Made by a program: the position numbers and the translations under genes. From positions 992,001 through 1,056,000 of the forward strand of contig NW_026250412.1 of the NCBI RefSeq assembly GCF_024521635.1: a stretch of 64,000 nucleotides of DNA. Reading direction: 5' to 3'. The notes under the pieces were generated by a model. It was not told the DNA's origin. It searched no databases and saw nothing but the letters and a program-made list of their open reading frames with translations. Shown piece after piece: positions 12,533 to 51,016 of this stretch; the first letter of the stretch is position 1; each line of letters starts with the position of its first letter. This DNA comes from Tricharina praecox. Its lineage: Eukaryota.

Positions 12533-12959
12533 CATTGAAGGTTGGCGTCAACCCTCATAAACCCCTCCCGCTCTGCTACTAGCCAGCGGGTCCCACTGAC
12601 GTCTCCTAATACACACTGCCGTATCGTAATTGGATCCGCGAGACATCCCTCCTTTCCCACTCATTAATATCGCGGATATCGCCCCACTTGTAATATCTCT
12701 CGTCTTATGTAATTTCATGTGAACGAACCTGAGCCAGCTTTCGGAAAGGTCTTTCCTCCTGGCCATGGGTGACAGAAATGACAGAAGTCAAAGGTTGTTG
12801 CTCTGGCCGCTGTGCGAGAGGATGCTATCGGCTTAATGGACTGCACTCTCATCCACGGCTGCCTCCCATGTCCCTGCCAGCACCTAGTCGCGGACCACAG
12901 CAACGGAGTTTTGCTGCACTGGTTGCTGCGCGAGAGAATCGCATTGATTTTACGGGCAT

Positions 12960-14178
12960 CTACAGTGGGTGGTTATGAGCCGTGACAGCGACTAGTTCAG
13001 CCGCCGGCACGCAAGGTACTTCAACCTGTCTCCAACGAGTGGCATGTCACGTTTGCTCGCTCGTTCCATCTGATGAGCAAGTTTTGGTGGGGCCCTGCTC
13101 GCGGGAAATTTACCCCGACTCCGGCGATTGGTGTCACGTTTTGGTGGGGTCTAGCGGTCTGGCGGCGGCGAAAATGCTTAGAACCTAGCGGCTCCTCAAT
13201 CACTTATAAAACCCCCCCTTCTGCTCCTCCTTCTCTCCTTCTCTTTACAACCGTCACAGCTTCCATTGAACGTCGAATATTCGCCTTCCTTCCCCCCATC
13301 CCTCCTACTTTTCCACCCTCCATCCCTCCTTCCTTTCCAGTCACTCCCCCTCCCTCCTTCATTCAACCTGAGCCCGAGCTCAATCCTCGAGGTACGTCAT
13401 TCTCTCTTCCCCACATTTTACTTCCAGGATAACCTTACAGAGCTATCCTGCTCAGCCGTAGTAGCGAGGAACTGAGGTCCGTGCAACCAGTCTACAAAGT
13501 AGACTGTTGCAGCACCAACAGACGGATCCAACCTTCGAGGCTGAGTAGAAAAGATCCGAGGACGGGGTTTTCTCTTCTGCTGCCGGCGAAGTTCTTTCCC
13601 CCTTCCGCCAGGATTCCAAGTCGGGTGAGAGCCGACTTGCTCCCCGTGGATGGCTTCTCCGAAACCGGGTGACAGACGGTTTCGTGTTGACGAGGAAGAA
13701 ATAAACTAAAAAAAGTATAACTTCCGAGTTCTACGCGTATAACCTGGTCTACTATCCCCCCACGTTGTACGCGGAGGTTTTCTTCCTTTGTTGTGAGAGA
13801 GAATTGAGCGAAGGTCTTTCCTCCAGGCCATGTGTGTCATGTGTGAGAGACATGCCACACGTATGGCCAAGGCCCACGCCTCCGAAACTGGGCTACAGAC
13901 GGTTTCGGACGAGCAAATAAATAACCAAAGAAGTATAACGTGGTCTACTACCGCCCCAAGTTATACGCGTATAACGTGGTTTACTATCCCCCCACGTTGT
14001 ACGCGGAGGTCTTCTTCCTTTCATAGCAAAGGTCTTACCTCCTGGCCATGCATGAGTGAGATGCATGCGCCATTAGCGAAATGTTGTTGCTCTGGCTGCT
14101 GTGCGAGAGGATGACATCGGCTTGTTAATCGACTGTGGACTTGTGGTCTGCACTCTCGATCCACAGCTGCCTCCCGTG
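12960..14178 (+). repeat. Family B long structured non-coding element, copy B1
   Basis: TATGAGCCGTGACAGCG...CTTATAAAACCCCCC, CT-rich tract, hairpin-rich body ending TCCACAGCTGCCTCCC; a fragment of the B 3' end also precedes it (~12745-12870). Confidence 0.85.
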
Positions 14179-14904
14179 CTTTAGCCACGGCGGCGGCTAA
14201 CATGTATTATGGTTTCCAAAACTCCATGTTCCATCAATCACCTCTCTTGAAACAACGTTTCTATCGCGTGCGGAACGCTGAATGCAAACGAATTCTTGTG
14301 ATACTGGTAGATGGTTCGATCGTGTCCGAGTGCTTTCCATGATTCGGACTAACGAGCCCTACTCGCGATACTCTAGACGCCTTGCCGCGCTAATACCCGA
14401 TCTACTACTACCTTATCAGGAACTTCTATCATAGTAGAGTACTAGTCGGCGGTGTCGACTGTGGTCAAGTCGTGCTCCTCGGCATGATGCGGCATGCCGA
14501 AGCCGTGCTGTGCCGCTGTTTAAACACATTCCGATACATATGGAGTGAGTAGCGAGCACAGGTCGGCAAGAGCATCGTTCGTTCCGGGCGTTCCCGGCTG
14601 TGTGCGTGTGCGGGTCCATCGCCGGATGGCTGGAGGGATGAATCCGGAGGCATTGATTGAACTTTATGTAGGTCCTGTATATAACAAGGAGGGTGAAATC
14701 TACTCTATTATACTGGCACCTCGCAGGTCTGTGCTTTAACGGGCCTACAGCGCAGTCGTAAAGCTTCACAGGTACTATGAGGTTGCTACTAGCTTGGAGG
14801 GTCGAGCTATCAAATGTGAAGGTATGCAGTCCGTAGTGGCACTGCTTCTGAGTGGCTGTTATGTGTTAGAACGTGCTCATAACCGCGCGCGGAAAATTTA
14901 CAGC

Positions 14905-15025
14905 ACGGAAAAAACCCCGCGTAGCCTTGTGGGCTAGGCTACCGCCCCGGCGCTGAAAGCTCGCTGTTCGACTCCCTGGGGAAGAGGGGTTTCCAAGCCA
15001 CCCACCGCGGGTGGTGAAGGTTTTT
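14905..15025 (+). ncRNA. Family A, copy A5
   Basis: Full copy; GTAGCCT/AGGCTAC compensated stem; B-box GTTCGACTCC; T5 terminator. Confidence 0.55.
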
Positions 15026-17168
15026 GGTTCGAGCCACGGTGAAGGTTTTGTTTTGTTTAATCATCATGGGATTTCGCCTTAGTAGATAGGTCATGGCAGA
15101 TTGCATGTCTGCTTCCACCCGGGTGTCACCGATATCTGGCCACGAGCTCTATGCGGGATCCACATTGCTCTCCGCCCAGCCCTACGCTCGAGCCAAACCT
15201 AAAATGTCGCATTCGATAGTTTACTGTTTACCCTTAGTCGGTGAAGCTACTCATGGCGGCGAAGCATCACCGCCATCACACACTCTCTCGCCAAGGACGC
15301 CACGACGCCACGACGCCAATCGCAGGCTACATCCGATGCTTATCGTCTCGCAACTCGAGTACATACCATTCATCTTCGAGCGCGAGTACGGTCCATCCCT
15401 GACGATAGACCACGGTAGACCGGGGTCGGGGGGGGCAGCACTCCTTTTCCGCTAGACTGGGGAGGTAGGCAGTTCCGTCCGTTCAATCGACCTCGCTGCG
15501 GAGCCCCGTGCCCCCAGAGTACAAGTGTGGGCGAATCCTACTCTATACAGAAGGTCGGAATGTCGACTGTGATGTGATTCGCGTGCTCGTTGGGTACCGA
15601 CCGGTTATGTCGTTAGCATATATCCGTCGCTTCGGCGATACCCTGTAGGGGTGTCTTAATCTCGGTGGTCTCCTACGACGTGGACTTGAGACACGACGTT
15701 AACTCTCGTCTTTCCATTTACTACATAGGGCAAAACGCGTGCACGACGAGGGTGGATTTCGGCCGCCTGCGTTTACGGAGTTTCGAGTACCGTAGATGGG
15801 ATGTAGATCACTTCATGTACAATATAATTGCTCAAGAGTAATAGAGTAGGGTTACTGTGGTGAATCGTTTGTCCGGGCGCCAGTCCAATTCTGTGGAGCG
15901 GGGCCGTCCCGTGCAGGTTCTCCAGAGGACTATGTACTTCCTACTAGGTTGTCCGTCCAATGCGGAGAAAAATTATTTAACGCCGAGAAACCTATTCGAT
16001 TTCACCAGGGAAGTTTGAGGACCCATAATGTAACGCCCAGATAGGTACCCTACGGGTACCCATCGGTACCTGATACCTAACATCAGCGTTCTGTGCTGAC
16101 TAAGTAGTCTTATAGACAACCGTGCAACCCACATGATCTTCCGACTCAATCGCATTCAACCCAGACGCAATGGTTTTCACACCGACACGATGCTGGTAAT
16201 ACGTCGGTACTCAACCTCATTGAAGTTAGACGATCTGGGATGATGTTGATCGACGGTCCGTACTAGAGTACTCTACGCGCAGACGCTCTGTAGCGGTGGT
16301 GCGGGGTAACCACTCTAGAAGGCAGCGCTAAGGATGCGCGCCTCGTTGGACGTCACATCACGTGGTCAGGAGGACCGCCGTCCGTCCAGTCCTCCACCAC
16401 ACCAGACCGGACTGTTTAGCGTCCCCTGAAGAAGCCAACCGGTCTAGGTAGCCAAGTACATATGCCGGACGTGGTAATCCCGCCCGGCTCAACTCAAATT
16501 CCCCAAGGTACCTACTTGGTTCAACGGTTGGTACCTATAAGGTACCGACAGGCCGCATGCAGCCCTCGGCGATGTAGATGCAATCACCGGGGTTCCGGTA
16601 AGAGTGCGAGTTCATGTCACGAATCCCGGCCCCCACCTTGCGCCCGGCTCTCTTTTTCTTTGGCTTTCTCATATTGTGCTTTGCATCCGGATTTTACTGG
16701 ACTTTTCCTTCTCCCGAGACATACACCGGGGGCGCAACTCAAAGTAAAAACCGACTATACAACGAAGGTTGCAGCCGTTCGAGACGATCTTGGGCATCGT
16801 TGAACCCGTCTTCTGTGTACCTTATACTTGTTCGCTTTCTAGATCTGCACTGTACAGTCTGTACTAATGTACTCAGGTTCTAACCCAGTGATACCGCACT
16901 CAGGTACCAGCCCAGCGATACCACTTTTCCACACGGCCGGACCGTCAAAGTGACCCATTCGTCTCATCCTGAAGATTTATCCCTCTTCATCCTCGGAACT
17001 CCCCCTTCGACACCGCTTCGTCTCTCTAATCTTCCAACTGCCTTCCGTACCTACACTTCGACACCCCCGCATTCCTCTTCTGCAACCTCACCATCCTCTA
17101 TTCATCACTCGTCCCATACGAAAAGCAAAATAGAATAATACAACCCTTTCAACACGCACAACGCAAAT

Positions 17169-18291
17169 ATGCTTCGGCTAACGATCGGCCTCTTTGCCCA
17201 GCCGTTTACAACTCTACCCCTTCCTCCCCATGGTACCTTCGCCCGCAAGACAGCTGTGGTTACCGGTGCAAACACCGGCATAGGACTTGAAACATCCCGC
17301 CACCTACTCGCTCTTGGCGCCCCTCGTGTTATCATCGGCGTCCGTAACGCAACTAAAGGGGAGGCCGCGAAAGTCTCCCTCCTCAAGACCCCCGGCATCT
17401 CGGCGGATGCGCAGGTGGAAGTCTGGGACCTCGATCAGAGCTCGTTCGCCTCGGTCAAGGCGTTTTGCGCGCGAGCTGCCGCTCTCGAGAAGATTGACTA
17501 CCTATTCCTCAACGCCGGTGTAATGAGCACGCACTTCAACACCACCGCTGACGGCTGGGAGGAGATTCTGCAAGTCAACGACCTCTCGACGACGCTGCTC
17601 GGGCTTCTCCTCCTCCCCAAACTAATCTTGCAGTCGCGCGCCGCCTCTGCCGCTGCCGGAAACTCCCTCGCGGACGCCGACCTTCCGCGCATGATAATCA
17701 CGACGTCGGGGATGCACGTAGTCGCGCCGTTCTTGGAGCGCAGCGCGCCGAACTGCCTTGCGGTGCTCAACGAGCGCAGCAACTTCGAAAAGAACCGCTT
17801 CGACCGCACAATCCAGTACCAGAACTCGAAGCTGTTGAACGTGTACATCACGCGCGCGCTCGCACGTCTCGTTCCGCACACAGACGGGAAGCCGCTGGTA
17901 ATCGTGGCCACGGTCGACCCTGGCCTGTGCAAGAGCACGCTTGGAAGAGCGGATACGCCTATCCCTACCCGCATCCTGAACAGGCTCACGGGGTACACGA
18001 ATGAGTACGGCAGCAGGAATCTCCTCATCGCAGCTGCGGGCGGGATCGAGGGCCAGGGAGGGTACTATACTTCTATGGGGAAGCTGGGATCGTGAGTTGC
18101 AGACTTGACTTGCGGTCGCGGATCGTGAAGGTTCCCAGCGCATTCGCTAACGTTGTGTGATATACAGGCCGGGTGGATTATCGGTTGGACCGGAGGGCCA
18201 GCTTCTCCAGGAGAAGGTCTGGACGGAGATTACTACGGTGCTTCGCGAGGTTGCGCCGGAGATTGGCCCGGTCGTTGACGGTAGCCTGTAG
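17169..18291 (+). CDS. short-chain dehydrogenase/reductase (retinol-dehydrogenase-like), 2 exons
   Basis: TGANTGIG, LNAGV, YQNSK catalytic YxxxK, VDPGLCKS; intron 18092-18167 (GTGAGT..CTAAC..CAG); exon 2 ends QEKVWTEI...SL-TAG at 18291. Confidence 0.9.
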
Positions 18292-18825
18292 GTGCGGGCT
18301 TGGTTGCGTTGACGGGTTTCTTGCATGTGCTGCGTCGGGTCGAGCGGGAAATTGGTTTATGATTTTTGTTGTTGTCGCATTTATTCTCGTTGTGTTATTT
18401 TTCTTTGGTTATGAATAATGAAGGCGGTTAGGAAGAACTGTAACACAGACAGTGGCTGTGGGGATGGTAGCTATGACGGACAGTGTACGGTGTACGAAAT
18501 ATGGTAGATATCCAAGAATACACTACTATATACTGAATACCCAACCTCAGGTGATCTTCCAAGCCTCAGCGTTTCATAACTCCCGGGGAAGATTGCCGTA
18601 CGGAGGTATTACTGCTGCTGCTGCTGCTTGATGTTCCACACAGTCCGCCGCTCCTCCTTTACCCACCAGTATGCACGATTCAGAAGTACTACATAATATT
18701 CCCCTCTAATCCTGCCCATCACGCAGTGGGCCGATTCCGGAGCAGAAAAGGGTTGGGAGTAGGTGGGTGTAGTGCGTATCCATCGATGTGTTAGGCATCC
18801 GTTAGACCCTGCTGGCAGGTAGCAG

Positions 18826-18991
18826 CAGTGTTCTACATAGTCCGGTCGGGACTGCAGTCGACTGCAGTCCGTCCTGATGTCGAAACCTTTCGGACTAGTC
18901 CGGCCGAAAACCGCTCCCTGACGGACTGCCGAGATACAGTCCATTCCGGTCTGAGGCCTAGGACGGACGGACTGAACTATGTAGAACACTG
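18826..18991. mobile_element. hAT-like MITE, 166 bp
   Basis: 16-bp TIRs CAGTGTTCTACATAGT/ACTATGTAGAACACTG; perfect 8-bp TSD GGTAGCAG (18818-18825, 18992-18999). Confidence 0.9.
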
Positions 18992-19022
18992 GGTAGCAGA
19001 GCGGGATGGGAGGGATTTATAA

Positions 19023-19381
19023 CAGGGCTGTCAACCGTCCGTCCCATCCGTCTTTGAGGTTTCTCGACCCGGGGCGGAATAAGTCGCGTTGAGGAGACCA
19101 AGGACTACAGTCTTCCGGGCTGGAAGAATGAGGACCGATACCCTATAGGGCCCGGAATGGACTGGGACACTAGGACACTGCTAGTGGCGTGGCGCCACAC
19201 CGTGGCGCCGGTGTGCGCACGTGTGGCTGTGCGGCTGTATATCTCAGTGTCTCTCACGGTATAGAACTTTCACACAATCCTCCGGATGGAATGGATCAGT
19301 CCTCTGGAAAGCTTGCCCGGGACGGGACGGGCCTACGGTCCACTAGTGGACTGTAGTCCGGACAGACGGTTGACAGCCCTG
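19023..19381. mobile_element. hAT-like MITE, 359 bp
   Basis: TIRs CAGGGCTGTCAACCGTC.GTCC / GGAC.GACGGTTGACAGCCCTG; degenerate 8-bp TSD ATTTATAA / GTTGATAA (6/8). Confidence 0.8.
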
Positions 19382-19411
19382 GTTGATAAGGGTTGACACA
19401 AATCTTCAATC

Positions 19412-19532
19412 ACGGGAAAAACCCCCGCGTGGCCTTGTGGGCTGGCCACCGCCTCGGTGCTGAAAGCTCGCCGTTCGACTCACTGGGGCAGACGGGTTTT
19501 CAAGCCACCTACCACGGGTGGTGAAGATTTTT
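19412..19532 (+). ncRNA. Family A, copy A6
   Basis: Full, somewhat diverged copy; TGGCCTTGTGG and GTTCGACTCA boxes; T5 end. Confidence 0.5.
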
Positions 19533-20044
19533 GTGTTTTGATGCGACGGCGGAGCACTTGATGTCACTCGGATGCATCACGTGTGTTGCTTTTTCGCCGC
19601 CGGTGAGAAGAGAAGAGGAGAGACCCCGCCGTAATATCTTAAGTGATCAGTGAAGTACATAGTATGCCGATTGGCACCACCACTACACTGTACGTAACTC
19701 CGCTGAGTATTGCTGGTATCGTAAATTTAACGGCAAACGTCTAAAATGCCATGATGTTTTCGATATTTCAAACCCACTATCCCGCATACCCATTGTGGTA
19801 CGCGATGGAGGAGGTGTCGGTAAGAGTAGGATACGAAAGATGTGACCTATGGGTGTGAGGAAACGAATGTAGTCAGTGGTGCGCATCAACGTTGGTGGGC
19901 ATGGCGCCGGGGTTTCTTCTTCTTCTTCTATCTTGATGATCATCTACAGAATAGGTAGACGACCAATCTTCGTATCTCCCCTTTCTTCTGTGTGTGCTCT
20001 CCTATCCATCCTGGTTCCGGCCTGAAAGCGTGTTTGTACAAGAG

Positions 20045-21775
20045 CCGTCTGCAAAAGTACTGGGATAGATAGGAGAATTGGTAGGAAGATAGAAGTATTT
20101 GGTTGCTTGCTTTTTCTTCTTCTCCGAGCCGGTGACCTTCTATATATACATACTATGTCTGCTCTCGGAAGATAGACCCGCCGGCTACACCAGACTGCAG
20201 AACATATATCCTCTTCCGGATACAGTTTGCATGGCTGTCTCTTCTTTGACTCCTTCACAAAATGTTCCTTAAAACTCACCATCGCCAGCTGCCTTACAGC
20301 GAACATTAGGAGAGATCCTTCATGTGCTCCAGATGCCGTAATATGGCAGACGTTGTGTATGAGCACCTGCAGTGGGCGGTTATACGCCATGACAGCGACT
20401 AGGTAGTTGAGCTGCTGGCGCGCGAGGTGACTTCAACAACCACCACTCCCCAGCGAGTGGCGCGTCAGGTGCTATTGTCGCTTGTTTCATCTGATGAGCA
20501 AGTTTTGGTGGGGTCTAGCGGTCTGGCGGGACAGTTCGACCCGTCTCCGACGATTGGCGTCACATTTGCTCGCTCGTTTCACAGGATGAGCAAGTTTTGG
20601 TGGGGTCTAGCGGTCTGGCGGGACAGTTCGACCCGTCTCCGACGATTGGCGTCACATTTGCTCGCTCGTTTCACAGGATGAGCAGGTTTTGGTGGGGTCT
20701 AGCCGTCTGGCGGCGGCAAAATACTTGGAACCTAGCGGCTCCTAAATCACTTATCAAACCCCCCCCCTTCTGCTCCCCCTTCTCTCCTTCTCTTTACAAC
20801 TGTTACAGCTTCCATTCTTCGTCAACTATTCGCCTTCCTTCCACTCATTCTTCCTTCCTTCCTTCCTTCCTTCCACCTGAGCCCGAGCTCAATCCTCGAG
20901 GTACGTATTTCTCTGTCTTCCCCACTTTTTACTTCCAGGACTATCCTGCTCAGCCGTAGCAGCGAAGAACTGAGGGGTCCGTGCAACCTCTACATAGTAG
21001 GCTGTTGCAGCACCAATAGACGAATCCAACCTTCGAGGCTGAGCAGAAAAGATCCGAGGACGGGGTTTTCTCTTCTGCTGCCGACGAAGTTCTTTCCCCC
21101 ATCCTCCGGGAGTCCAAGTCGGTCAAGACTCGACTTGCCGACTTGCTCCCGGTGGATGGCCTCTCCGAAACCGGGTGACAGACGGTTTCGTGTTGACGAG
21201 GAAGAAAAAAACAAAGAAATTATAACTTCCGAGTTATACGCGTATATCGTGGTCTACTATCCACCCAGGTTACCTGTCCGCAGAGGTTTTCTTCCTTTGT
21301 TGTGAGAGAGAATTGAGCAAAGGTCTTTCCTCCAGGCCATGCGTGTCATGTGTGAGAGACATGCCACATGCGTGGCCAAGGCTCATGCCTCCGAAACCGG
21401 GCTACAGACGGTTTCGGACGAGCAGATAAATAACCAAAGAAGTATAACGTGGTCTACTACCGCCCCAAGTTATACGCGTCTAACGTGGTTTACTATCCCC
21501 CCACGTTGTACACGGAGGTCTTCTTCCTTTCATAGCAAAGGTCTTAACTCCTGGCCATGCATGAGAAGCATGCATGCGCCATTGGCTAAATGTTGTTGCT
21601 CTGGCCGATGTGCGAGACGATCACATCGGCTTCTTAATCGACTGCGGACTACACTCTGGATCCATGGCTGCTTCCCGATGTCTCCATGGTTCTTGGCTGT
21701 CAAATATACTGAGATCGATAGGACGATAGGTAGGACGATGTGACTATTCTGTTGCTTCCTTCTTCGTCTCATCGT
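20045..21775 (+). repeat. Family B, copy B2 (modules X-Y-Z-core-X)
   Basis: Collinear with B1/B3/B4; the ~75-nt X block (..GATCGATAGGA.GATAGGTAGGA.GATG..GTTGCTT..) occurs at both ends (~20045-20120, ~21697-21770). Confidence 0.85.
20493..20712 (+). repeat. 92-bp tandem repeat (2 copies identical by eye + partial third) inside B2
   Basis: GATGAGCA(A/G)GTTTTGGTGGGGTCTAGC.. starts at 20493, 20585, 20677. Confidence 0.9.
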
Positions 21776-21861
21776 TGTGTTGCGCATCCTTTGGACCCCG
21801 CTGGTAGGCAGCAGAGCGGAGGCGGCTGGCGGTTTATAGCGGTTGATAGAAATTTTCACTC

Positions 21862-21982
21862 ACGGAAAACATCCCCGCGTGGCCTTGTCGGCTGGCCACC
21901 GCCTCGGCGCTGAAAGCTCGTCGTTCGACTCCCTGGGGAAGAGGGGTTTCCAAGCCACCCACCGGGAGTGGTGAAGGTTTTT
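21862..21982 (+). ncRNA. Family A, copy A7
   Basis: Full copy, TTTATAG ~28 nt upstream, B-box GTTCGACTCC, T5 end. Confidence 0.55.
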
Positions 21983-23455
21983 GTTTTTGACGTGAAGGGT
22001 GTAGCATGTGATATCACTTAGTGGAACCACGTGGCACGACGTTTGCTGCCGGCTTTTTATTTGTTTAATCATCATCGCATTCGACCTACGTAGATCATGG
22101 TAGATTACATATCCGCTTCTATCTGGATGTCACTGACCGCTAGCCTCAGAATATCAGCCTCGCGGATGCACTCGTTGTATTTCCCAAACCAATAGCCGGA
22201 GATCATGTGCAAATAAAAAGTGGGGAACGGCCCAACGCGGATATATTCTACCGTCCGAGATACACGTTTGCACTGTGCTGAAGTGTAGGCGCGGGCTACT
22301 GCACAGAACAGATGCCCACCTCGGTATCAACTAGCGGCTTTACGTCGGCAGTTCTGCATTCGCCAGCGGTGTCGTACTTCATTTGAATCTCCGGTATCTG
22401 CTCGGTTTTATCAAGCGAGATCTATTGGTAAAGCGGCGATATGCGATTGCTCTTTCTTTACTCACTTAGATTATGGACCTATCACTAACTGGACTTCCCC
22501 GCACCGCCATGTCGTCATATCGCCGTGTGCACGCGGCAGGCTCTGGGCTGTAGGGTTTTCGTTGCAAGGCGCGCGGAAGTCGAGGGAAGCCAATTCCGCC
22601 GGCCTCAAGACGAACGAATAAACAGCATCAGGGCCATCTTTACGGACCGATCCGATTGGCGTCTGTGTCTGGGCTCCGCATCGCAGTATCCCACGCCCTG
22701 CTGTAAACGTTAGCGGCAACAACGACCGGGTATCCGAATGAATGCCGATCATGCGTGGGGGCGGGAAAGGATTATCTCTGTAGAGAGTAAACTGGGTTTG
22801 AATCACCCGGTGGAACAAGCTTGTAGTCCGACTTCCGGGGCTTCCAAGTTCCAAACTACCCACTGATTGTGGCGAAGTATGTTTTCTTTGGTCCTGGTCC
22901 TGAGTCCAAGCTATGATCTATTTTGACTGGAGCCGAGCAAGTGCTATCACTCGGCCCCACTGCACGCTACATGGGGATGATATCCGTGCAGCAGAGGGAT
23001 ACCCACCAGTAGAGTACGTCCTACCATGATCTAGATATTTTTTTTTGTGATATGAGGAATCATTATGACCATATCCCCAGGCTTCAGTAGCTACCTCATA
23101 GAATCGATGGCTGAACACTGTCTGCAGACTGCAGACCTGGAAGTTTATATATTGCTTAGAGGACCAACTATACCGCGTGCTTGCCATGATACTCGTCTGC
23201 TTTACCTAATTTAGGATAGTTAAATGATTGATATGAGCGTGATCAAGCGCCCAGCCTTAACTTAGTGAATCGAGATTCGAAACTGTAGGCTTTCATTGCT
23301 TGCCAAGATGGAGCGGCAGAAGGTTTTCCAATGCGAAAGACGACTAGTACTCTAGCATCCTCGGGGCTCGGCGCCACTTACTATTCCTGTGTGCAGATGA
23401 GCGTGTCGCCGTTGAAAAAGCGGGCGGGTTTAAAAGCACAAACGCAATCCATAGC

Positions 23456-37212: not shown

Positions 37213-38916
37213 GGTGTGTGATGGTTCTAGGATGGCGAGGTTGTTATGATATTTCATTCTAAGAGCCGAGATAAACAAACCGGTGTGAGTAAGAGGTCGA
37301 AAAGATTTGCAAAGGAGAAAATTTGTAGCGGGCGGAGGAAGGTGGAGAGTGGAGAGTGTGAAGAGAGAAGGAAAGAGTGGGAGAGCAGTGGGAGAGCAGT
37401 GGGGGTTTTGTAGAGGTTTCTAAACCTCAAACTTGCACTAGCGGAATCACGATCTCCTCTCTTCCCTACGGGCCAACTCGCCCGCTCTTGCCACCTGTGC
37501 TCTGTCCCTTCGTTTGAAGGTTTTCCAAATCCTTTCTATGGGGCTTGCGTGGCTTTTGCCGCCCGGCATTCCTGCTCCCGCCGATGAAGACGGTCACATA
37601 TACGCCGCCCCTGCCGCGAGCACTATCAGGTCATGACTGGAAGCTTCCCTCTCTTCCAAGTCCCGCCATCTCTTCTCCCCTTTCCCTTTCCCTTTTGGAG
37701 CGAATGCGAAATCATGAAGAACCGCCGCGTAGGCTGCAGAAAGGTCGAGTGATAATGTATGACCAGCGGCAGCTGCCGGCAGTTGCAGTCCCAACTCCTG
37801 GGTTCGAAACGCTAGTCTTAAGGCTCAGGCGGCTGTCGCGTGTCCCGTCCATTTTCACCTGACTGTGCATGTCATTCGACTCACCATGCCATGCTCCCCT
37901 AGGTACACAGTGATCGAGATATCCAGGCATGCACGAGACCCGGCTGTGCACCGTACAGCAAGCACAGGAGATTTACGCAGTTCACGCAACATACTACCCG
38001 CTAAATTTCTAAGCGAGCGGCGACATACAACCAGACGACGAAATCGGACAGGAACGGGGAGGAAAGCAGAGTCAACAGCTCGTGGTGGTTGGATTTGAAG
38101 GAAGACGTGGGAAGAAGAATGATGTAGAGGCAAGCGTGGACGCGGACACCAAAACATCGGGCGACCGCGATGGTCAAGAGACCAAGACCCCAGGGCAGGC
38201 ACTTGGAAGTTGGACGAGCAGCTGGCTGAACCCAGAGCTACCTTGGCCTTAGTTGGCAGGGGATTCCAGCAGCTCAGCGGAATCCCGGACTCCCAAAGAT
38301 CGGAGCGTGGCGAGCTGACCCTGAACAAGGAGAACTTGATGGAGGGTGGGGAAATTCGAGAGGCCTCCTCTCTCTCTCTCATTATATACAGGAAAGACGA
38401 TCAAGAACAGCGCGATATCCGCGGTAAGGCCAGCAGCTTATCCACAGCAAGGACAGTGTGGTATCCGTGAGACCAGGAGCGAATGCAGTAAATACCCACG
38501 GCAGAAACCACGAACGACAGCGAAGTCAGTGTGCAATCCGCGGTGAATAGCCTATAGTGTGCATCCACGGTGAGGCAGGCCCGACACAGCAGGACGGCGT
38601 AGGACAACGATGCATACCCGCTGTACGAAGACCAGGGCTGTCTGACAGCGAAGGACGGCGAGTATTGACAACTGCATGTTCCATCATTCATCAGATTTTG
38701 TGCCGTTACCGCAAGTAGTGGAGAATTACAGTGACATTCGCAAGTACTACTATTTGCCGTCAATAGAGACGACAGGTACGCATTCATTACGCCGCATTGC
38801 ATGTATCCTGGGGTATATGGGGACTACATACGATGGTTCAACACCTGGTGTGGTTGATAAGCCTGTTGCGCATGCTGGCGCGACGGGTTCATAACCGCGC
38901 GTAGTAAATTTACAGC

Positions 38917-39027
38917 ACGGAAAAAACCCCGTGTGGCCTTGTGGTCACGCACCCGGCGGAGTTAGCATGGACAACGGTCCATCTATCGGGGTTTCCAAGC
39001 CACCCACCGGGGGTGGTGACGGTTTTT
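38917..39027 (+). ncRNA. Family A, copy A13 (alternative interior)
   Basis: Outer stem and 3' hairpin are consensus, flanks match A5, interior is different. Confidence 0.5.
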
Positions 39028-39207
39028 GGTTCGAGCCACAGTTCGGTTTTTTTTTTTGTTTAATCATCATGGCCTTCGGCCTTAGCAGGTCATGGCAGAT
39101 TAGATGTCTTTTTCCAGCCGGCTGTCACCGACCTCTGGCAGCGAGCTGGATACCAGTTTCCTGTTGCTCGCCGCCCAGCCCTTCCCTCGAGTCAAACCTA
39201 CCCGCTT

Positions 39208-40258
39208 ACCGCTCTGTCAAATATACTAGGATCGATAGGAGGATAAGTAGGAAGATGTAACTGTTTTTTCTATGAGCCGTGACAGCGAATAGTTCAGCCG
39301 CCGGCGCGCGAGGTGACTTCGACCCCGTCTCCGACGATTGGAGTCAGGTCTGCTCGCTCGTTTCGCCGGACGAGCAAGTTTTTGTGGGGTCTAGCCCTTG
39401 GCGGCAAAAACTCGCTTGGAACCTGGCGGCTCCTAAATCACTTATAAAACCCCCCATTCTACTCCTCCTTCTCTTCTTCTCTTTACAACCATCACAGCTT
39501 CCATTCTTCCTCGACTACTCTCCTTTCTTCCTTCCTTCCTTCCCCCCATCCTGCCTTCCTTCCCACATTCCTTTCCTTCCTTCCCTCCCTTCCTTCCACC
39601 TAATCTTGAGATCAACCCTCAGGTACGTCGTTCTCTGTCCCCCGCTTTTTACTTCCAGGATAACCTTACAGGGCTATCCTGCTCAGCCGGAGTAGCGAGG
39701 AACTGAGGGATCCGTGCAACCGGTCTACAAAGTAGACTATTGCAAGAGACGGATCCAACCCTCGAGGCTGAGCAGAAAAGATCCAAGGACGGGGTTTTCT
39801 CTTCTGCTGCCGGCGAAGTTCTTTCCCCCTTCCGCCAGGATTCCAAGTCGGGTGAGAGCCGACTTGCTCCCGGTGGATGGCTTCTCCGAAACCGGGTAAC
39901 AGACGGTTTCGTGTTGACGAGGAAGAAATAAACTAAAAAAAGTATAACTTCCGAGTTCTACGCGTATAACCTGGTCTACTATCCCCCCACGTTGTACGCG
40001 GAGGTCTTCTTCCTTTCATAGCAAAGGTCTTACCTCCTGGCCATGCATGAGTGAGATGCATGCGCCATTAGCGAAATGTTGTTGCTCTGGCTGCTGTGCG
40101 AGACGATGACATTGGCTTCTTGATTGACTGCGGTCTACACTCTCGATGCACGGCTGCTTCCCGGCGTCTCCCTGTTTCTTGGCTATCAAAGATACTAAGA
40201 TCGGTAGGAGGATAGGTGGGACGATGTGGCTGTTTTGTTGCTTCCTTCTTCGTCTACT
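39208..40258 (+). repeat. Family B, copy B4 (X-Z-core-X; single internal unit)
   Basis: X block at ~39208-39270 and ~40183-40258; lacks one ~220-nt internal repeat unit. Confidence 0.85.
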
Positions 40259-40267
40259 ACGGGTTAG

Positions 40268-40594: not shown

Positions 40595-40913
40595 TCTGTT
40601 CGTACGTAGTGTTATATCTTTGGTGCGCTCTATAAGCCAGCTGAGAATAGATATGTAAACGACACTGCGTCGTTGTTCTTATCCGTCACGTGGCACACAC
40701 CACTTTATAAGAATCGAATTCATGTTTCTGGTACGGATCTACCGCAGCGTGAGATGGAATAATCATCCAGACGATCAGTTGTGGGGGCCCCGGGGGTGTA
40801 TCGATGAAGCAGGACAGGTTCCGATCTGGCGGGCGTCGCTTCGTTGCCGTTGTTATTGTCCCATCACGGGGTGGAACACACCACTTTATATTTTCCAATT
40901 TGCTGTTTCCATC

Positions 40914-42755
40914 ACGGAAAAAACCCTGCGTGGTCCAGTGGTCCCCTAGGGTACAAGTAATGAGGCAAACTAGCATTTTATGGTCAATGAGGTCGCAAGA
41001 AACACCATCCTAAAATGATTTCACTCAATTAGTGAATGGAATGAGGTCCAAGATGTCGCATTAACGGAGATGTCACTCAATGCAGCAGAATGATGAATGC
41101 GACAAGACGTAGAATGCGCTGGGTTTTGAGATGGTATTGTTGCAAAATGCGATATTTTGGATAATTTGCAGTATTATAAAATGCGTTACATTCATATGTG
41201 GTACTAGTATACGGCTTGTCCTCCTATGCCTTCCTCCATTTGCGCCGCAGCGTACCTCCCTCTCCCGACCGCGGATAGCACACTCTCCTTCCGCAGTCCT
41301 TGCTATACTTGCCGTTCTCGCCGCTGTTCTTGCTGTCCTGCGCTGACTGTCAGCTGTTGGTAGTCCCATACTCTCGCCGCCGCGGGTACCACACTCTCTT
41401 CGCCGCGGATACAACACTGTTGTGGTGGAAGAGTGGTGGAGGAGCGATCTGTGAGGAGGAGCTGTCTGCGAGAGGGGGGACTGTCGGCGAGGAGGAATGT
41501 CTGCGAGAGGGGGGACTGTCGGCGAGGAGGAGTTGACAGCGAGAAAAAAAGCTACTAGCGAGAAGGAGGAGTGGTCAGTGAGGAAGAGTGGTCAGCGAGA
41601 AGGACTTACCAGCGAGGAGGAGTGATCAGCGAGATGAAGAGGAACTGTCTGCGAGAGCAGGAATTGCGGCCCCAGAAGGAGTTGCGGGGGAGTAGGAGCT
41701 ATATGAGAGAGGAGATATCAGCGGGAGTAGCAGTGGCAGTTGCGGCAGGCGGGAGAAGAAGTTGCGGCGGGGTAGGAGTTGCGGCGGGAGTGAGAATTTC
41801 AGTGGCGGCGGGAGTAGCAGTAGCAGTTGCGGCGGGATTTGAGAATAGCAGTTGTGGTGGGAGAAGGAGCTGTGATGATGGCGAAAAGAAGAAGAAGAGG
41901 AGGAGGAGGAGGAGGAAAACCCCACCATGCCCGCCAATGTTGATGCACACCACTAACCACATTCGGTTTCTCCGGCAGATACGTCCTTATCCTGCTGCCT
42001 CCTTCCGCCGACAGCTCTGAGCTCTCTCGCCGGGCCTTGATAGTCTACGGGCCGGCCGAACTATTCCCAGGCCTGGCCGTTTACAAGTCCGTTGTGTGGT
42101 GGCAGACGAGAGTAGATGTTGATCATCTATCCCGTAAATGATGGTGATGACTGGAGAGAGAGATGAGGTGGAGGTTGATCGTGTATTCTGTAGACGATGA
42201 TGAAGATGATGAGAGAGAGAGATAAGGCCTCTCGGACGGCCTTCAAGTTCGCTGCCTGCTCGCTGCCTGCCCGCTGCCTGCTCGCTGCCTGCCTGCTGCC
42301 TGCCTGCCCGCTGCCCTAGCCATCCACACTAACTACATCTGTTTCCTCTCGCCGACTACTTGGGTACTCTTATACATACCACAACGCATTCTATGACAAT
42401 GGCGCATTCATCACCACCACCATCGCAGCTGGTTGCTTGCACGTCTTACGTATTAACTATGAGATTCGCATTTACTAACATCACTGCAATCAGCACGAGG
42501 GAGTTTGCTGCATTTACTAGCAATAATGCATTTAGCACGGCGCGTATCTGTCACCAAATGAGGAGCATCTCATTCTGCGACATTTCGGGTGCAGTCAATG
42601 AGTGATTCACTCATTCCTCGTACCCTAGGGGGTCTAGGGCCACGCAATCGACGAGGGGAGCTGAGGGAAAGACCCCGGTTCAAAACCGGGTGAATACCTT
42701 ATGTATTTAGCTCTTGGGATTTCCAAGCCACCCGCCGGGGGTGGAGATGGTTTTT
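40914..42755 (+). ncRNA. Family A, copy A14, split by a transposon (40914-40942 + 42634-42755)
   Basis: Rejoined sequence has A-box TGGTCCAGTGG, B-box GGTTCAAAACC in a CCCGG/CCGGG T-arm-like stem, consensus 3' hairpin and T5. Confidence 0.55.
40943..42631. mobile_element. non-autonomous CMC/CACTA(EnSpm)-like DNA transposon, 1689 bp
   Basis: 22-bp TIRs CCCCTAGGGTAC(A/G)AG(T/G)AATGAG; 2-bp TSD GT; subterminal AATGAG/CTCATT repeats; interior of simple repeats, no transposase. Confidence 0.8.
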
Positions 42756-43603
42756 GTTTTTTGCATCATGGGTTAAGCACGGAATATCACTCGATAGCAG
42801 TCATCACCTGACATGCTTTGTGATGGCGGCTCCTTTATAGTTTAATCATCATTGCATTCAACCTTGGTAGATCATGGCAGATTACACATCCGTTTCCACT
42901 CGGTCTCTGGCACCGACCGCTGGCTGGAAGCTCGATACTGGTTCCCTATTGCTCTCCGCTCAACCCTCTCCGCTCCGTGCGCTGCAAAAGGAGTCCGTCC
43001 CGTCTATGGGTCCGGACGGACTGGACTTAACTGGACTGGGCTATGTATGTAGAAAACTGCTTTCGCGATGATAAAACGCTAGAGACCTCTAGCTCTTTAC
43101 GGGGCTTTCATCAAAACATTGACCTCAGCCGATGCTGGACTTCCCCGAGGCGTGTAATCTGGAGGTGTCAAATTGTTAGTACCCTTCCATATATACAGAA
43201 TATGTCTGCCATTAGGAGACAGACCCGACAGCGATACCAGACAGCCGAACACATCTCCTCCTCCAGATACAGTTCGCATGGCCGAGTCGTTGACTCCTTC
43301 AGAATAGTGCTCCTTGAAATTCACCACCACCTTACAGCGGTTATGAGGAGAGATCCCCCATGTGCTCCGTACGGCGTAATCTGACATACTCAACCCGCCC
43401 CGCGAGGTTCATCCGTTGCCAACCACGGAACCAAGAACTCGCCGTGATCGTGGTTTTTACGAGTCGATGGCTTGGTGTGCGTTCCGGCTCGGTTCCATGG
43501 TTCATCTAGGTACTATGGCTTTGTCTGCTGGCAGGTTTGAGGCGTCTAAGTGAGTATCAGGTGCGTAGCTACATGTTATCATCGGAATCAACATTCTTCT
43601 TGT

Positions 43604-43714
43604 ACGGAAAAAAAACCCCTGCGTGGTAGGCCACCACCCAGCGCACGGAGCTCCCGGTCCGACTTCAGGGGGAGAGGGGTTTCCAAGCCACCCACCGGGG
43701 GTGGTGAAGGTTTT
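43604..43714 (+). ncRNA. Family A, copy A15 (shortened/diverged interior)
   Basis: ACGGAAAAAAAACCCCT...AGGGGTTTCCAAGCCACCCACCGGGGGTGGTGAAGGTTTT. Confidence 0.45.
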
Positions 43715-44737: not shown

Positions 44738-46159
44738 ATGGCCCAACACGAGCTCCCGTCGTTCCTCAAGCCTACCCTGCGCGTCTCCCAATTCACTGTC
44801 GCGATCCCTGACAACGACATCGCCGACTTCAAGACGCTTCTCCGGCTCTCCAAGCTTCCACCCGCGACCGCTACAAGTGATGATCGTCACTACGGCATAA
44901 CTGCGTCGTGGATGTCTGAAGCGAAGCAGAAATGGCAGGATTTCGACTGGTGAGCACCCCCCCATCCAGCCCGCCCGAAATTACGCTAAACGACGCCTCC
45001 ATCACAGGAAAGCAACGGAATCAAAGCTCAATTCGCTCCCACAGTTCACCACCGAAATCGACGACTTCACCGTCCACTTCGTCGCCACGTTCTCCGAGGA
45101 TCCGGATGCGGTGCCATTGGTGCTCCTTCACGGCTGGCCCGGATGCTACTACGAATTTTATCCACTAATTACAGCGCTCCGGAAAGACAAGCAGAAGAAC
45201 TACCACATCATCGTGCCCAGCCTACCAGGGTACGCTTTCTCCACCGCCCCGACGGATCGGCAGCTGTTGTTGAGCGAAATGGCAAGCGTGGTGGACCGGT
45301 TGGTTGTGGGATTGGGGTTTCCCGGGTATGTCGCGGTCGGCGGCGATATTGGCTCGCTCGTGGCGCGGGGGTTGTCAGGAAAACCGGCCTGTCGGGGGGT
45401 CCACCGTTCGTTCTCGCCCCCACCCCCGAGGAATTCTCTCTGACAAACAAACTCCAAGTGAACATGTATGTTCTCCTCTCGGAACCACCCACCGCGGTAT
45501 CCTCACTTCCCAGAGTGGATCAAGAGTGTGTCGCGCGCGGTGAGATGCACAAAGAAGATGGCACCGCGTACGCTCTGATCCACGGCACACGGCCCAACAC
45601 CATCTCGCATGTCCTGGCGAGCAGTCCGCTTGCGATCCTGGCGTGGATCGCAGAGAAGTTTCTCGACTGGACGGAGGAGGACCCGTCCATGGAGCTGATT
45701 CTGGAGGTGGCGACGCTCTATTGGTTCACTGAGAGTTTTCCCAGGGGGATTCATCCGTACCGCGAGGTTGCTCCCGGCCCAATGCTTCTTTCCGGTGGGT
45801 GTGTCGCTAACGGACGGGACACTGCGTGGTGTGTACATAGTACCACAACATCAGAACCACAAAAACCGACTGGACAGATACTATCACGATCAGATCTCCC
45901 TACGGCTATTCGTGGTTTCCGAAGGAGATAATCCAGAAGCCACTGGAATGGATCGAGCACGATAATAAGGATGTTCCGCTAGCGGTCTTGAAGAGACACG
46001 ACAGGGTACGTACGCACACACACTCCTGATGGGCCACTGTTGATGATGATGGCGGGGGTGAAGTGTGGCCATTTCCCCGCGTTCGAGTGCCCGTACATTT
46101 ATGCGGAGGATATCCACGCGTTTGTGGAGGCGTTGGTGATGATGGAGAAGAAGATGTGA
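44738..46159 (+). CDS. microsomal-type epoxide hydrolase (alpha/beta hydrolase), 5 exons
   Basis: N-terminal ..WQDFDW, LLHGWPG, VPSLPGYAFS, GGDIGS nucleophile, WIAEKF, YSWFPKE, GHF.AFE.P; introns 44950-45007, 45406-45458, 45767-45840, ~46006-46063. Confidence 0.9.
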
Positions 46160-47149
46160 TATCCAAGAACCGAGCGCCAGTTACATACATCGGAACATTA
46201 GTTTGTTGTTTCTGCTTTGCGGGTCCGGTTTCCAACGAAAATTGAGTTGCCTCGAAACGAAACCCTGGTAACTGCTAGCCCTTTCTTACATCCGGAGCGC
46301 GTGATGCACAGGCAGACGGCTAGTCCCCACCAACTAACTCCTTAGTTGACGTCCACCGGCAACGGTCCCTCTTAGCTTCGCACTGAGCCATACCCGTGAG
46401 ACACCAATTGGAACACCGTTATTTGGAAAACATAGATCGAGATACGGAGGAGCAGCCGCTCTCCACCTCTGCGCGATCAGAGCTAGCTACGCGTAAATGA
46501 GATTCTATACGAGTTACCCCACAATCAGGGAGGGGCTTCACTATCATACTAGTACTAGTACTGATGCCTGGACGGCTGATCGGCATGAGCATCACCACCT
46601 TCGGCTCTTGACCAATCATCAATGGCCACTCAGCCGAGGCGGTTGATTTTGCCTGTCGATGAAAGACACCGATGTCCCAGACTTCCAGACTCCCAGCTGC
46701 GCAAATTCGCCTAGATGTGCAGCGGGAAGGCCAACGGGACCGCATTGTCCCACTCCCCTCCGATCCCCTCCCTCCCAGGTCCGGGAGAGAATCCTCGGCT
46801 CGCTCTCGCTCTCTCGCTGAGCCTGGCCTGAAGAAGCTAGCCACGGAGCGCGGAAGGAAGATGCCGTCGTTCCCCACATTTCCACCAACCACTCTAGCGA
46901 CGTAGATATGTAATCGATTGGGGAGGGATCGGTTACTGCTCGTGCATATTCATAGAACGGTCCGGTCCGGTTCTCAAAGTGCACTTATTCAAGACACGTT
47001 CGCTGGCATACCCTATTCTATGACTGCACACTCATTACTTAAGGGCGGGCGAGCGGGGCTTTCTTGCAGTGATCGATCTTGACTTTTCTCTTCCCGCCAC
47101 TGCCGACACTATAGTACTCGACATATCTACATACACGCAAGAATCGAGA

Positions 47150-49088: not shown

Positions 49089-49844
49089 ATGTTTGAATGA
49101 AGTCGAGTAGACGCCTGCCGTACATGACGTGTCGTCGAGTGATTCTTGGGATTCGGTTTTTTTTTTCCAGTGAGCTTGTCTGGGTCCGTAAAAAGAAGGG
49201 CTTCCAATAGGTACTGTATCACGTGCCATCACTCGCACGGCGAATTTAGACCTCCACTCGTTTATATTAGGCGCTTGATTCTTTCTCTCTCATTTCTATT
49301 AGATACATGGAGAGAACATGTACCTTACATATGGACGGCGCGGGAGACTTAACGGAGTGGGATCAATACATACAACTGCTTTATGTATGACCATGTTCTC
49401 CGTCTTGACTGTTCACCCGTGACCAAGCCCCCCGAATCCCCCCTGGATCACCCCCAAGAAAAAACGTTACATTATATGATCCCTGAAAGTTGAAACGGCG
49501 CCGCCGATCTGCCTGCCTTTTAATTTTCGCTTAACTACTACCTGGTATATGGCGCTTTAATAATAATAACTCTATTTCAACCGCGGTGCTTGCTCCCCAT
49601 ATATCTACCGTGATTGTTGCAACTGGTGGCGACTTTGCTCGTTTTCTCGGCGGTTGATCTGGACTCTGGAGACTCTGCTTTGGACGTGTGGACGAAAGTG
49701 GTACATGGATGTACAAGGTACCTAAGTAGGTGGATACTGAGGGAAACCCGGCCCCGGCAGACACCCACCCAAAGTTCAAACCCACGATACCTAAATATTT
49801 GGGCACGCGTTAAAATAGCGTAGCGCAAATAGTTATAGGGCGGC

Positions 49845-51014
49845 CGGATCATATGAAGGATCTCTCCTCATAACCGCTGTAAGGTGATAGTGAAGTTTTA
49901 AGGAGCACTGTTCGGAAGGAGTCAACGAGTCGGTCATGCGAGCAGTATGATGAGTCCGGAGGAGGAGATGTGTTCTGCTGTCAAGTCTCGTTGTCGGGTC
50001 TACCGGTATCTCACAATGGCAGCCATATTCTGGATATATAGAAGGGCACCGGCTCGTAGTAGACGAAGAAGGAAGCAACAACATGGTCACAACTTCCTAC
50101 CTATCCTCCTATCGATCTCAGTATATTTGACAGCCAAGAACCAGGGAGACGCCGGGAAGCAGCCATGGATTGAGAGTGCACCCCGCAGTCAATTAAGAAG
50201 CCGATATCGCCCTCTCGCACAGCGGCCAGAGCAACAACATTTGGCCGATGGTGCAAGCATGCTTCTCATGCATGGCCGGAGGAAAGACCTTTACTCTGAA
50301 AGGAAGACGACCTCCGCGTATAATGTGGGGGGTTCGTAAACCACGTTATACGCGTATATCTTGGGACGGTAGTAGACCAAGTTATACTTCTTTGGTTATT
50401 TATGTACTCGTCCTAAACCGTCTGTAGCCCGGTTTCGGAGGCATGTAGTGGGCCTTGGCCATGCATGTGGCATATCTCTCACACAAGCGCATGCATGGCC
50501 AGGAGGAAAGACCTTTGCTCAATGCTCTCTCACAGCAAGGGAAGAAAACCTCAGCGCATAACGTGGGGGTTAATAAACCACGATACACGCGTACAACTCG
50601 GAAGTTATACTTTCTTTATTTTTTTCTTCCCCATCAACACGAACCCGGCTGTCACCCGGTTTCGGAGAGGCCATCCACCGACTGGGAGCAAGTCGGCTGT
50701 CACCCGACTTGGACTCCCAGAGGAAGGGGAAAAGAACTTGTGCCGGTAGCAGAAGAGAAAACCCCGTTCAAGTTGGATCTTTTCTACTCAGCCTCGAGGG
50801 TTGGGTCCGTCTATTCGTGCTGCAACAGTCTACTTTGTAGACAGGTTGCACGGATCCTCAGTTCCTCGCTGCTACGGCTGGGCAGGATGGCTCTGTGAGG
50901 TTATCCTGGAAGTAAAAAGTGTGGCGGGAGAGAGAAAAACTTACCTCGAGGTTTGATCTCGAGATCAAGTGGAAGGAAGGAAGGAAGGGAGGAAGAAATG
51001 GGAAGGAAGGAAGG
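49845..51014 (-). repeat. Family B, copy B5 (core-X-Y), 5' part interrupted by a TA-MITE
   Basis: Reverse complement of the B body, then X (~50140-50060) and Y (~50060-49845); a diverged CTATAAAACCCCCC block lies at ~51284-51297. Confidence 0.85.
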
Positions 51015-51016
51015 TA

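Follow-up and report, generated by a model that had tools for sequence, protein, structure and literature searches.

The 64,000-nt window analyzed here (the whole stretch of Tricharina praecox contig NW_026250412.1 from position 992,001 to 1,056,000; coordinates below count from its first letter) contains intergenic islands in which copies of a small-RNA-type gene, A, lie among copies of a longer non-coding unit, B (modules X, Y, Z and core), and of a short block, D. A first-pass annotation had read A, D, X, Y, Z and core as one circularly permuted, protein-free unit of ~3 kb that carries two RNA genes and spreads by way of tandem multimers, or of an intermediate that is circular or of rolling-circle type. 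Its module map was useful and its observation largely right; however, the composite circular A+B replicon is not supported, and A and B do not behave as one permuted unit. The reading that we prefer, with a probability of about 0.5, is that no fewer than four non-coding repeat families, independent of one another, have accumulated here as a nest in shared intergenic islands. On this reading, A copies would be RNA polymerase III (Pol III)-type small-RNA genes that were multiplied as DNA together with their promoters, and D would have entered T-rich tracts through target-primed reverse transcription, in four cases just behind an A terminator. B would have been copied at the DNA level from head-to-tail dimers, which would be why each copy starts elsewhere in the core-X-Y-Z cycle, and miniature inverted-repeat transposable elements (MITEs) would have landed in the same places as A, D and B. 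The Pol III-type A genes may thus have been the insertion hot spot for the tails, the MITEs and B. The repeat map rests on self-BLAST and alignments of the window, which holds five B copies.

A is a gene of ~130 nt with 11 long and 4 partial copies in the window, on both strands (among the 13 aligned copies, 7 on plus and 6 on minus). The mapped copies were as follows.

A1: 6707-7002, plus strand, body 6777-6900; with a TATA-like box and the downstream block, and no B nearby
A2, A3 and A4: 10090-12596, minus strand, bodies 10319-10190, 11514-11388 and 12530-12437; A4 has an internal deletion
A5: 14871-15044, plus strand, body 14904-15029, T-run 15021-15025
A6: 19381-19570, plus strand, body 19415-19533
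A7: 21788-22053, plus strand, body 21850-21986
A8 and A9: 28348-29121, minus strand, bodies 28541-28416 and 28905-28778; with an extended upstream block common to A2 and A3
A10: 31570-31800, minus strand, body 31730-31612
A13: 38883-39048, plus strand, body 38906-39042; a variant with a diverged middle part
A14: 42616-42830, plus strand; a different subtype whose match to the main A type is confined to the 3' 47 nt
A15: 43604-43714, plus strand; a partial A

In the 13 aligned copies the motif GTAGCAGAGCGG lies upstream and is followed by TTTATAA ~29 nt before CACGGAAAAAACCCCGCG. The body has a conserved closing stem (CCCC/GGGG), a 3' hairpin (CCACCCACC...GGTGGTG) and a T5 run, and motifs resembling box A and box B were spotted in it by eye, not with a tool. 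RNAalifold placed 43 pairs, of which 3 showed compensatory changes; the covariation in the stems includes too few informative changes to prove the structure. ARAGORN found no tRNA in A and no Rfam family matched it, and a scan of viral contigs with the A pattern gave 0 matches. The motif GTAGCAGAGCGG may resemble an initiator-tRNA primer-binding site, but we rejected that assignment, since its position immediately ahead of the TATA-like box is a better fit to a promoter element. The copies share 70 to 250 nt of upstream promoter sequence and downstream blocks, and no poly(A) tail or target duplication was found on the A copies of the window. We therefore did not class A as a short interspersed nuclear element (SINE); A copies were multiplied as DNA and not by retroposition of their RNA, because each gene took its promoter and flank with it. 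A2 and A3 lie in a tandem duplication of 1.2 kb (10090-11218 and 11312-12342, 68 to 72% identical).

Transcription was examined in the assembled contigs of four sequencing runs, with depths summed per contig and therefore rough; parts without contig coverage were not used as evidence. Run X3 is real RNA, because its contig over a short-chain dehydrogenase/reductase (SDR) gene skips a 60-nt GT..AG intron. In this run the summed contig depth was 706 in the whole bin 21639-22305, which holds A7, versus 33 for the SDR mRNA, and A appears to be abundantly transcribed. In the DNA runs the contig depth of A was ~8 to 12 times the baseline versus 5 to 7 times for B at 90% likeness, both rough values, which suggests that there are further copies of A and B elsewhere in the genome but no large arrays.

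The first-pass annotation had correctly placed D after A5, A7, A13 and A14, at 15055, 22063, 39058 and 42840, respectively. The block takes on a different meaning when it is read on the minus strand: all four copies then end in GGTCGAATGC..ATGATGATTAAAC followed by an A-rich run, which abuts the T-rich tract behind A. The minus-strand 3' end is AGGTCGAATGCGATGATGATTAAAC, followed by a run of 11 A, by AAAACAAAAC, by AAATAAAAA or by TATAAA; on the plus strand a T-run is followed by GTTTAATCATCAT, which is what reverse-transcription priming on a T-rich nick produces. The copies have a common tail end and variable far ends, with ~95 nt of D7 and ~150 nt of D5, D13 and D14 aligning. These four copies and a shorter one are located as follows.

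D5: 15046-15238, minus strand; a 193-nt poly(A) retroposon copy on the strand opposite to A5, whose A-rich tail abuts the T-rich tract behind that gene
D7: 22054-22144, minus strand; a tail copy
D13: 39049-39200, minus strand; with an 11-nt A run (T11 on the plus strand), 13 nt from the X of B4
D14: 42831-42967, minus strand; a retroposon tail copy
38-nt tail copy: 51465-51530, plus strand, insert 51479-51516; CTGATTAAAC followed by seven A

The 38-nt copy is flanked by perfect 14-nt target-site duplications (GAATAGCGACAAAC, 51465-51478 and 51517-51530). D5 is flanked by an 8-of-8-nt duplication (CGGTGAAG, 15037-15044 and 15239-15246) whose left copy lies directly at the T-run; the probability of such a match by chance is ~0.01 in position-restricted windows by our own arithmetic, not by a tool. 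Nothing convincing was found in a search for target duplications of D7, D13 and D14, and a candidate for D7 (the 8-mer ACGTTTGC at 22039 and 22264) was no more than chance would give over the searched span. The tail has left two further relics, without poly(A), on the minus strand at 897-925 and 9867-9900 (GTCGAATGCACGATGATGAAAC and GTCGCATGCAATCAATGATGAAAC).

When metagenome contigs were scanned for the 3' module of A, 17 contigs (46.5 kb) of another fungus emerged, and these bear on both D and A. At ~12 sites of this second fungus the tail GGTCGAAT.C....ATGATGAAAC is followed by a run of 7 to 10 A and then by unrelated sequence, and the D tail ATGATGATTAAAC differs from it in two bases. D is thus the 3' end of a family of poly(A) retroposons that lack long terminal repeats (LTRs; non-LTR retroposons), because the shared tail, the poly(A) and the unrelated flanks recur there. 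The A-D junction is therefore an insertion junction and not a joint within a unit, and as a separate retroposon insertion D provides no evidence for an A+B unit. No autonomous partner for D lies in the window, which has no reverse transcriptase, and the long interspersed nuclear element (LINE) relics of the second fungus end in (TAAA)n, a different tail.

The ~20 nt at the 5' end and the 47 nt at the 3' end of A were nearly invariant across 21 sequences from the two fungi, while the middle differed; in the A-like genes of the second fungus it is replaced by more tRNA-like sequence, and the body of A14 resembles these genes. Such constancy at the ends around a changing middle suggests a scaffold for protein binding or processing. 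LINE relics (reverse transcriptase/RNase H, one LINE) were present at 9 of the 11 second-fungus loci with at least 300 nt of upstream sequence (contigs L001, L002, L004, L005, L007, L008, L009, L011 and L014), with domain matches to RNase H (E = 2.5e-7) and to RVT_1 (E = 2.4e-5, below Pfam's cut-off). These relics are antisense, and their 5' ends, which point towards the A-like gene, are cut at no fewer than five positions, whereas the edge of the A unit that they adjoin is fixed; at four loci they are cut at an identical point, with the edge ~25 nt before the A body. Their 3' ends read GTATGAACAATAAA(TAAA)n and are followed by unrelated flanks. Integration of this LINE thus looks position-specific, upstream of a Pol III-type gene. 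At some loci a poly(A) tail copy lies ~130 nt downstream, and some A-like heads run into a poly(A)-bearing tail of LINE type. None of the 17 contigs matched X, Y, Z or core, a weak negative because B may have diverged there.

B is a non-coding unit of ~1.0 to 1.7 kb, with five copies and one X-Y fragment in the window.

B1: 12745-14441, plus strand; a core-3' fragment of 128 nt (12745-12872, matching 14028-14178) before Z-core, then Z 12951-13141, TATAAAA 13205-13211, (CCTT)n, core to 14176 and block b 14177-14441
B2: 20052-21769, plus strand; X 20052-20136, Y 20136-20351, Z 20363-20713, core ~20650-21690 and X 21692-21769
B3: 29460-31110, plus strand; Y 29460-29659, Z 29666-29823, core to 30843 and block b to 31110
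B4: 39214-40261, plus strand; X, Z, core (with one of two internal ~223-nt repeats missing) and a second X
B5: 49845-51340, minus strand; a diverged promoter with TATAAAA 51296-51290, core 51014-50150, X, and Y to 49845
Y43: 43165-43395, plus strand; a fragment of the B family in which the start of X (X deleted) adjoins Y; it lies between A14-D14 and A15

These orders agree with the first-pass annotation, including the piece of its own 3' end in front of B1. Block b is an alternative 3' block that B1 and B3 carry in place of X, and B5 is interrupted in its (CCTT)n leader by an insertion that includes a palindromic MITE (51015-51116). The sequence CACTTATAAAACCCCCC was kept in all five copies (diverged in B5) and is followed by a variable (CCTT)n tract and the ~1-kb core, which contains a duplicated block of ~223 nt and many hairpins. 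B is a TATA-driven, protein-free transcription unit in which Z holds the promoter region and the core is strongly folded. The core folded more stably than shuffled sequences, with z = -8.2 on the TATA-sense strand versus -5.0 on the antisense strand, and several stem changes (U-G/U-A or C-G/U-G switches) pair only on the sense strand; true double changes affected 2 of 92 and 2 of 52 pairs, too few to prove a structure. The first-pass annotation had called A a Pol III-type and B a Pol II-type RNA unit, and both do look like non-coding transcription units of these types. In run X3 a contig of a B-core paralogue was present at a depth of 14 and Y of B2 at a depth of 3.8; from the DNA runs, B amounts to ~5 to 7 copy-equivalents at 90% likeness (rough).

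Core sequences were 87 to 95% identical between copies, versus 71 to 84% for the X/Y flanks. The core substitutions comprised 110 transitions versus 65 transversions (~1.7) without CpA bias, which led us to reject repeat-induced point mutation as the source of the divergence. Indels break all frames, so B was not considered coding, and the 293-amino-acid antisense open reading frame (ORF) of B3 matched no Pfam family and had no relative within the near-length range among 5.8 billion proteins. A metagenome scan with a 26-nt B-core pattern and a viral-contig scan with the B pattern each gave 0 matches outside this organism. B is lineage restricted, multiplies without coding capacity and keeps tail-to-head joints. 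In B2, Z contains 2.6 copies of a 92-nt tandem repeat (20478-20713, 95% matches) upstream of the promoter; each repeat copy contains the motif GTTTTGGTGGGGTCTAGCGGTCTGGCGG, which also occurs once before the TATA box in all B copies.

The tail-to-head joints reported for the composite unit were confirmed for B only: core runs directly into X in three copies (B2, B4 and B5), and the core 3' end precedes Z in B1. The cyclic order core-X-Y-Z-core holds at every contact between two B modules, with different start points, and these junctions imply that B would have been copied from head-to-tail dimers or an equivalent template. X starts at TGTCAAAT or TGCAAAAG at 20052, 39214 and 43165, with unrelated DNA upstream, and three of the five copies are bracketed by 80- to 130-nt direct repeats from different modules, while B5 is about one unit in another phase. 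Pieces of head-to-tail dimers, or copies taken from a circle, would have this appearance. No inverted terminal repeats linked the ends of B2 or B4. Beside X we found none of the hallmarks of an LTR that were looked for (CA end, primer-binding site, polypurine tract and target duplication). A self-cleaving ribozyme was likewise not found: the Rfam scan of the window returned no family at the gathering score and, up to E = 5, only hairpins of the palindromic MITE. The sequence CTGATGAG in Z of B1 was not conserved in B2 to B4. Joints in the sequencing contigs were often between paralogues, and none could be read as a circle junction. The sequence GTTTAATCA upstream of B5 was rejected as an end of B5, as it belongs to the separate 38-nt insertion with its own duplications. 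The spacing of 7.5 to 9.6 kb among the copies B1 to B4 might suggest duplication of a block of 8 to 9 kb; however, the inter-island stretches showed no homology at the DNA level (E of 1e-4 or lower) or at the protein level (1,026 ORFs of at least 40 amino acids), and therefore the regular spacing is not a decayed large duplication.

Two MITE families are present in the window. One copy (18826-18991) has 15-nt terminal inverted repeats (CAGTGTTCTACATAG) and an 8-bp duplication (GGTAGCAG), and it is inserted into, and splits, an A-type promoter (GTAGCAGAGCGG and TTTATAA at 18992-19023). This promoter lies ahead of sequence unrelated to A (18992-19300) and may serve another small-RNA gene with an A-type promoter. 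The contig depth of this MITE was 110 to 200 in the DNA runs, so it is high copy, and ~200 near 18952 in the RNA; a fragment of the family lies at ~43000-43060. The second MITE, of ~100 nt, is almost perfectly palindromic (51015-51116, 34437-34536 and 1163-1336), with weak miRNA-like Rfam scores.

The first-pass annotation had counted four of five B copies with A on both sides; within 0.9 kb we found three of five, and four of five with A on at least one side. When B was placed at random with A fixed (20,000 trials), at least three doubly flanked B copies occurred with P = 0.0026 in 6707-51117 and P = 0.0006 in the whole window, and at least four with A on one side with P = 0.17 and 0.025, respectively. 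Double flanking of B by A is above chance. The promoter side of A faces B in 4 of 7 adjacencies and the 3' side in 3 of 7, the A orientations around B are (-,+), (+,+), (-,-) and (+, none), and the spacers of 19 to 480 nt are not homologous. A1 to A3 lie without a B partner, 0.2 to 5.7 kb from any B. A homology of the A 3' end with the start of Z, seen by eye, aligned locally no better than shuffles (p 0.13 to 0.94). Individual joints were as the first-pass annotation had described: X of B4 is reached 13 nt past D13, ~200 nt containing the right end of the 18826-18991 MITE family separate D14 from Y, and the second X of B2 ends at 21769, ahead of the A7 repeat that starts at 21788. These facts leave the single ~3-kb unit with some attractions, as B is flanked by A on either side in three islands of similar size (2.8 to 3.5 kb; 12362-15201, 19381-22144 and 28348-31800), the double flanking exceeds chance, and the orders A13-D-X-Z-core-X and B2-X-A7 fit the cycle. 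However, the A-D joint is a retroposon insertion junction, A is mixed in orientation relative to B and separated from it by unrelated spacers, and clear X-to-A and D-to-X junctions occur only once or twice each. In addition, A outnumbers B ~2.5 to 1 in copies and also in DNA depth, A exists without B here and in the second fungus, and no ribozyme, no LTR hallmark, no inverted repeat linking the ends of B2 or B4, and no Rep or recombinase were found; we regard the unit as hardly credible. Much of the apparent circular two-RNA replicon of 3 kb thus dissolves, with the D linker an ordinary retroposon tail and A independent. A rearranged version retains the link between D and B: the antisense strand of B, with X, Y and D, would be a non-autonomous non-LTR retroposon that ends in the D tail and is copied in trans by a LINE through target-primed reverse transcription. 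The copies next to A (D only, D-X-Y and D-X-Z-core-X) would then form a 5'-truncation series, and the doubled X would come from a tandem source or template switching. The D copies do share one end at lengths of ~95, ~193 and ~560 nt (with Y43) and ~1.2 kb (with B4), X follows D in two of four copies, the tail family clearly was active, as the 14-nt target duplications show, and B copies contain antisense ORFs of 100 to 293 amino acids. We nevertheless consider it unlikely: B1, B2 and B3 lack D, the tail near B5 is a separate insertion, there is no target duplication at the far end of B4 or Y43, the antisense frames are broken by indels and the longest has no relatives, and the TATA box and the folding asymmetry of B favor the opposite strand as the functional RNA.

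Other explanations differ in what they make of B. A and B could both be selected host non-coding RNA genes in a birth-and-death cluster with gene conversion, with only D and the MITEs mobile. Conserved promoters, a core better preserved than the X/Y flanks, stems kept by changes compatible with one strand only, transcription of both families and the invariance of the A ends between two fungi all agree with this. Local duplication alone is insufficient, however, to account for the unrelated flanks without block homology, true compensatory changes are few, and B gave no match outside this organism in the one metagenome scan, which makes this explanation rather unlikely. At the other extreme, B could be a protein-free mobile element made from a circular or head-to-tail template, with copies slightly longer than a unit, terminally redundant and in arbitrary phase, that land beside A. 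We hold this to be distinctly doubtful; if true, A would be a landing pad marked by transcription complexes or T-runs and not part of the B element. A more specific form, in which B alone is a non-autonomous Helitron-like or tyrosine-recombinase element (DIRS, Ngaro or Crypton-like) that moves via a DNA circle, seems quite improbable. It would account for copies slightly over one unit that begin and end with short direct repeats drawn from various parts of it, as seen in the terminal redundancy of 80 to 130 nt in three of five copies (X...X in B2 and B4, the core 3' end in B1) and in B5, and PMC5148889 describes fungal Helitrons with joined ends and repeated 5' termini. The ends of B2 and B4 show no terminal or subterminal inverted repeat and no end hairpin, though, the unit start TGTCAAAT is not of Helitron type, no fixed insertion site was found, and no Rep/Hel or recombinase lies in the window.

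The nest of independent families has its own difficulties. A lies on both sides of B above chance (P ~0.003), and the hot-spot model fits this only qualitatively, with no fixed A-B distance or orientation as in Ty3 or TRE5. Target duplications, fixed termini and a fixed insertion site were not found for B. The start of X follows D in two of four copies (13 nt past D13, and as the X-like CTGCAAAAG after D14), so D and X-Y may belong together in a longer element, and part of B would then be linked to the retroposon. Additionally, the LINE-relic evidence for a hot spot comes from a different fungus, and the comparison is based on five B copies in one window. We infer the hot-spot role of Pol III-type genes and the way in which B copies are made, whereas the anatomy of the repeats, the identity of D, A's independence and the transcription of A/B-family RNA are direct results.

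The surrounding DNA has a GC content of 49 to 58%, and its ORFs include Swc3, aldose epimerase, SDR, SGT1, DUF726, coatomer beta and a Ras-type GTPase. For the coatomer fragment, the closest among the matches listed are proteins of Pezizomycotina, at 79% identity. Together, these identities mark the window as filamentous-ascomycete nuclear DNA. From 8.5 to 52 kb the only recognizable genes were SDR (17139-18092) and an epoxide-hydrolase fragment (44901-45440). As the first-pass annotation had stated, no transposase, reverse transcriptase, Rep/helicase or recombinase is present: none of these domains was found in any of the 170 stop-to-stop ORFs of at least 100 amino acids in the window, and ARAGORN found no tRNA there. 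The SDR gene (16715-18489) is transcribed and spliced, with an RNA contig that skips 16817-16876 (the 60-nt intron) and, at a second joint, 18092-18167. The match to epoxide hydrolase/alpha-beta-hydrolase (44901-45928) ends after the initial 157 residues of one ORF, which is overlapped by a second ORF that carries on in another frame, which indicates an intron or a frameshifted pseudogene. An RNA contig over 25591-26133 reached a depth of 124, four times that of the SDR mRNA, with no Pfam-recognizable ORF there.

Compared with known systems, the pieces of the region are mostly of familiar kinds. L1-type non-LTR retroposons leave 5'-truncated poly(A) copies made by target-primed reverse transcription. 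D resembles such copies in its shared 3' end with an A-rich run, its variable 5' ends, its target-site duplications of 14/14 and 8/8 nt and its T-rich sites; in contrast to a complete L1-type system, the window lacks the autonomous partner. D at the T-rich tracts behind the terminator could be explained by ordinary poly(A)-primed insertion, with no need of a targeting factor. Terminal-repeat retrotransposons in miniature (TRIMs) and solo LTRs are recognized by TG..CA repeats, a primer-binding site, a polypurine tract and a target duplication. B is similar to a TRIM in that X (~85 nt, with a TG start) brackets a non-coding interior in B2 and B4, with B5 as a shared-repeat tandem form. However, its promoter lies in the middle of the unit rather than in the repeat, and beyond TG no hallmark was found beside X. 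FoHeli elements, non-canonical Helitrons of Fusarium (PMC5148889), include copies in which 5' terminal pieces are repeated, joints that run tail to head, and short derivatives that are non-autonomous, and the X...X copies of B resemble these. Unlike FoHeli, B shows no asymmetric terminal inverted repeats, terminal hairpins, defined insertion site or Rep/Hel partner in view.

A is comparable to the Pol III small-RNA genes and tRNA-related SINEs of filamentous fungi, such as AfuSINE2 of Aspergillus fumigatus (PMC5063351), in that it is ~130 nt long, low in copy number, transcribed and equipped with a T-run. The candidate box-A/box-B-like motifs, judged by eye, and the tRNA-unrelated part are further likenesses. 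In contrast to SINEs, A shares 70 to 250 nt of upstream promoter, has no poly(A) or target duplication and matches no tRNA or Rfam entry. A is a Pol III-type small-RNA family absent from Rfam, whose ends are invariant between two fungi while the middle changes. The other pieces are copies of a poly(A) retroposon, MITEs, and a non-coding repeat that is unclassified and arose in tandem. Retroelements that integrate beside Pol III-transcribed genes include yeast Ty and Dictyostelium TRE5-A (PMC5911963, PMC3159450 and PMC5006619). As in nests of this kind, several repeat families lie within a few hundred bases of Pol III-type genes here, and the second fungus shows the same likeness in its LINE relics, which abut a fixed edge upstream of A-like genes; the window differs from the Ty and TRE5-A cases in having no fixed B-A distance or orientation. 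Two fungi with retroelement debris around A-type genes suggest that Pol III-gene-centered insertion hot spots, so far best known from yeast and Dictyostelium, may also occur in the Pezizomycotina.

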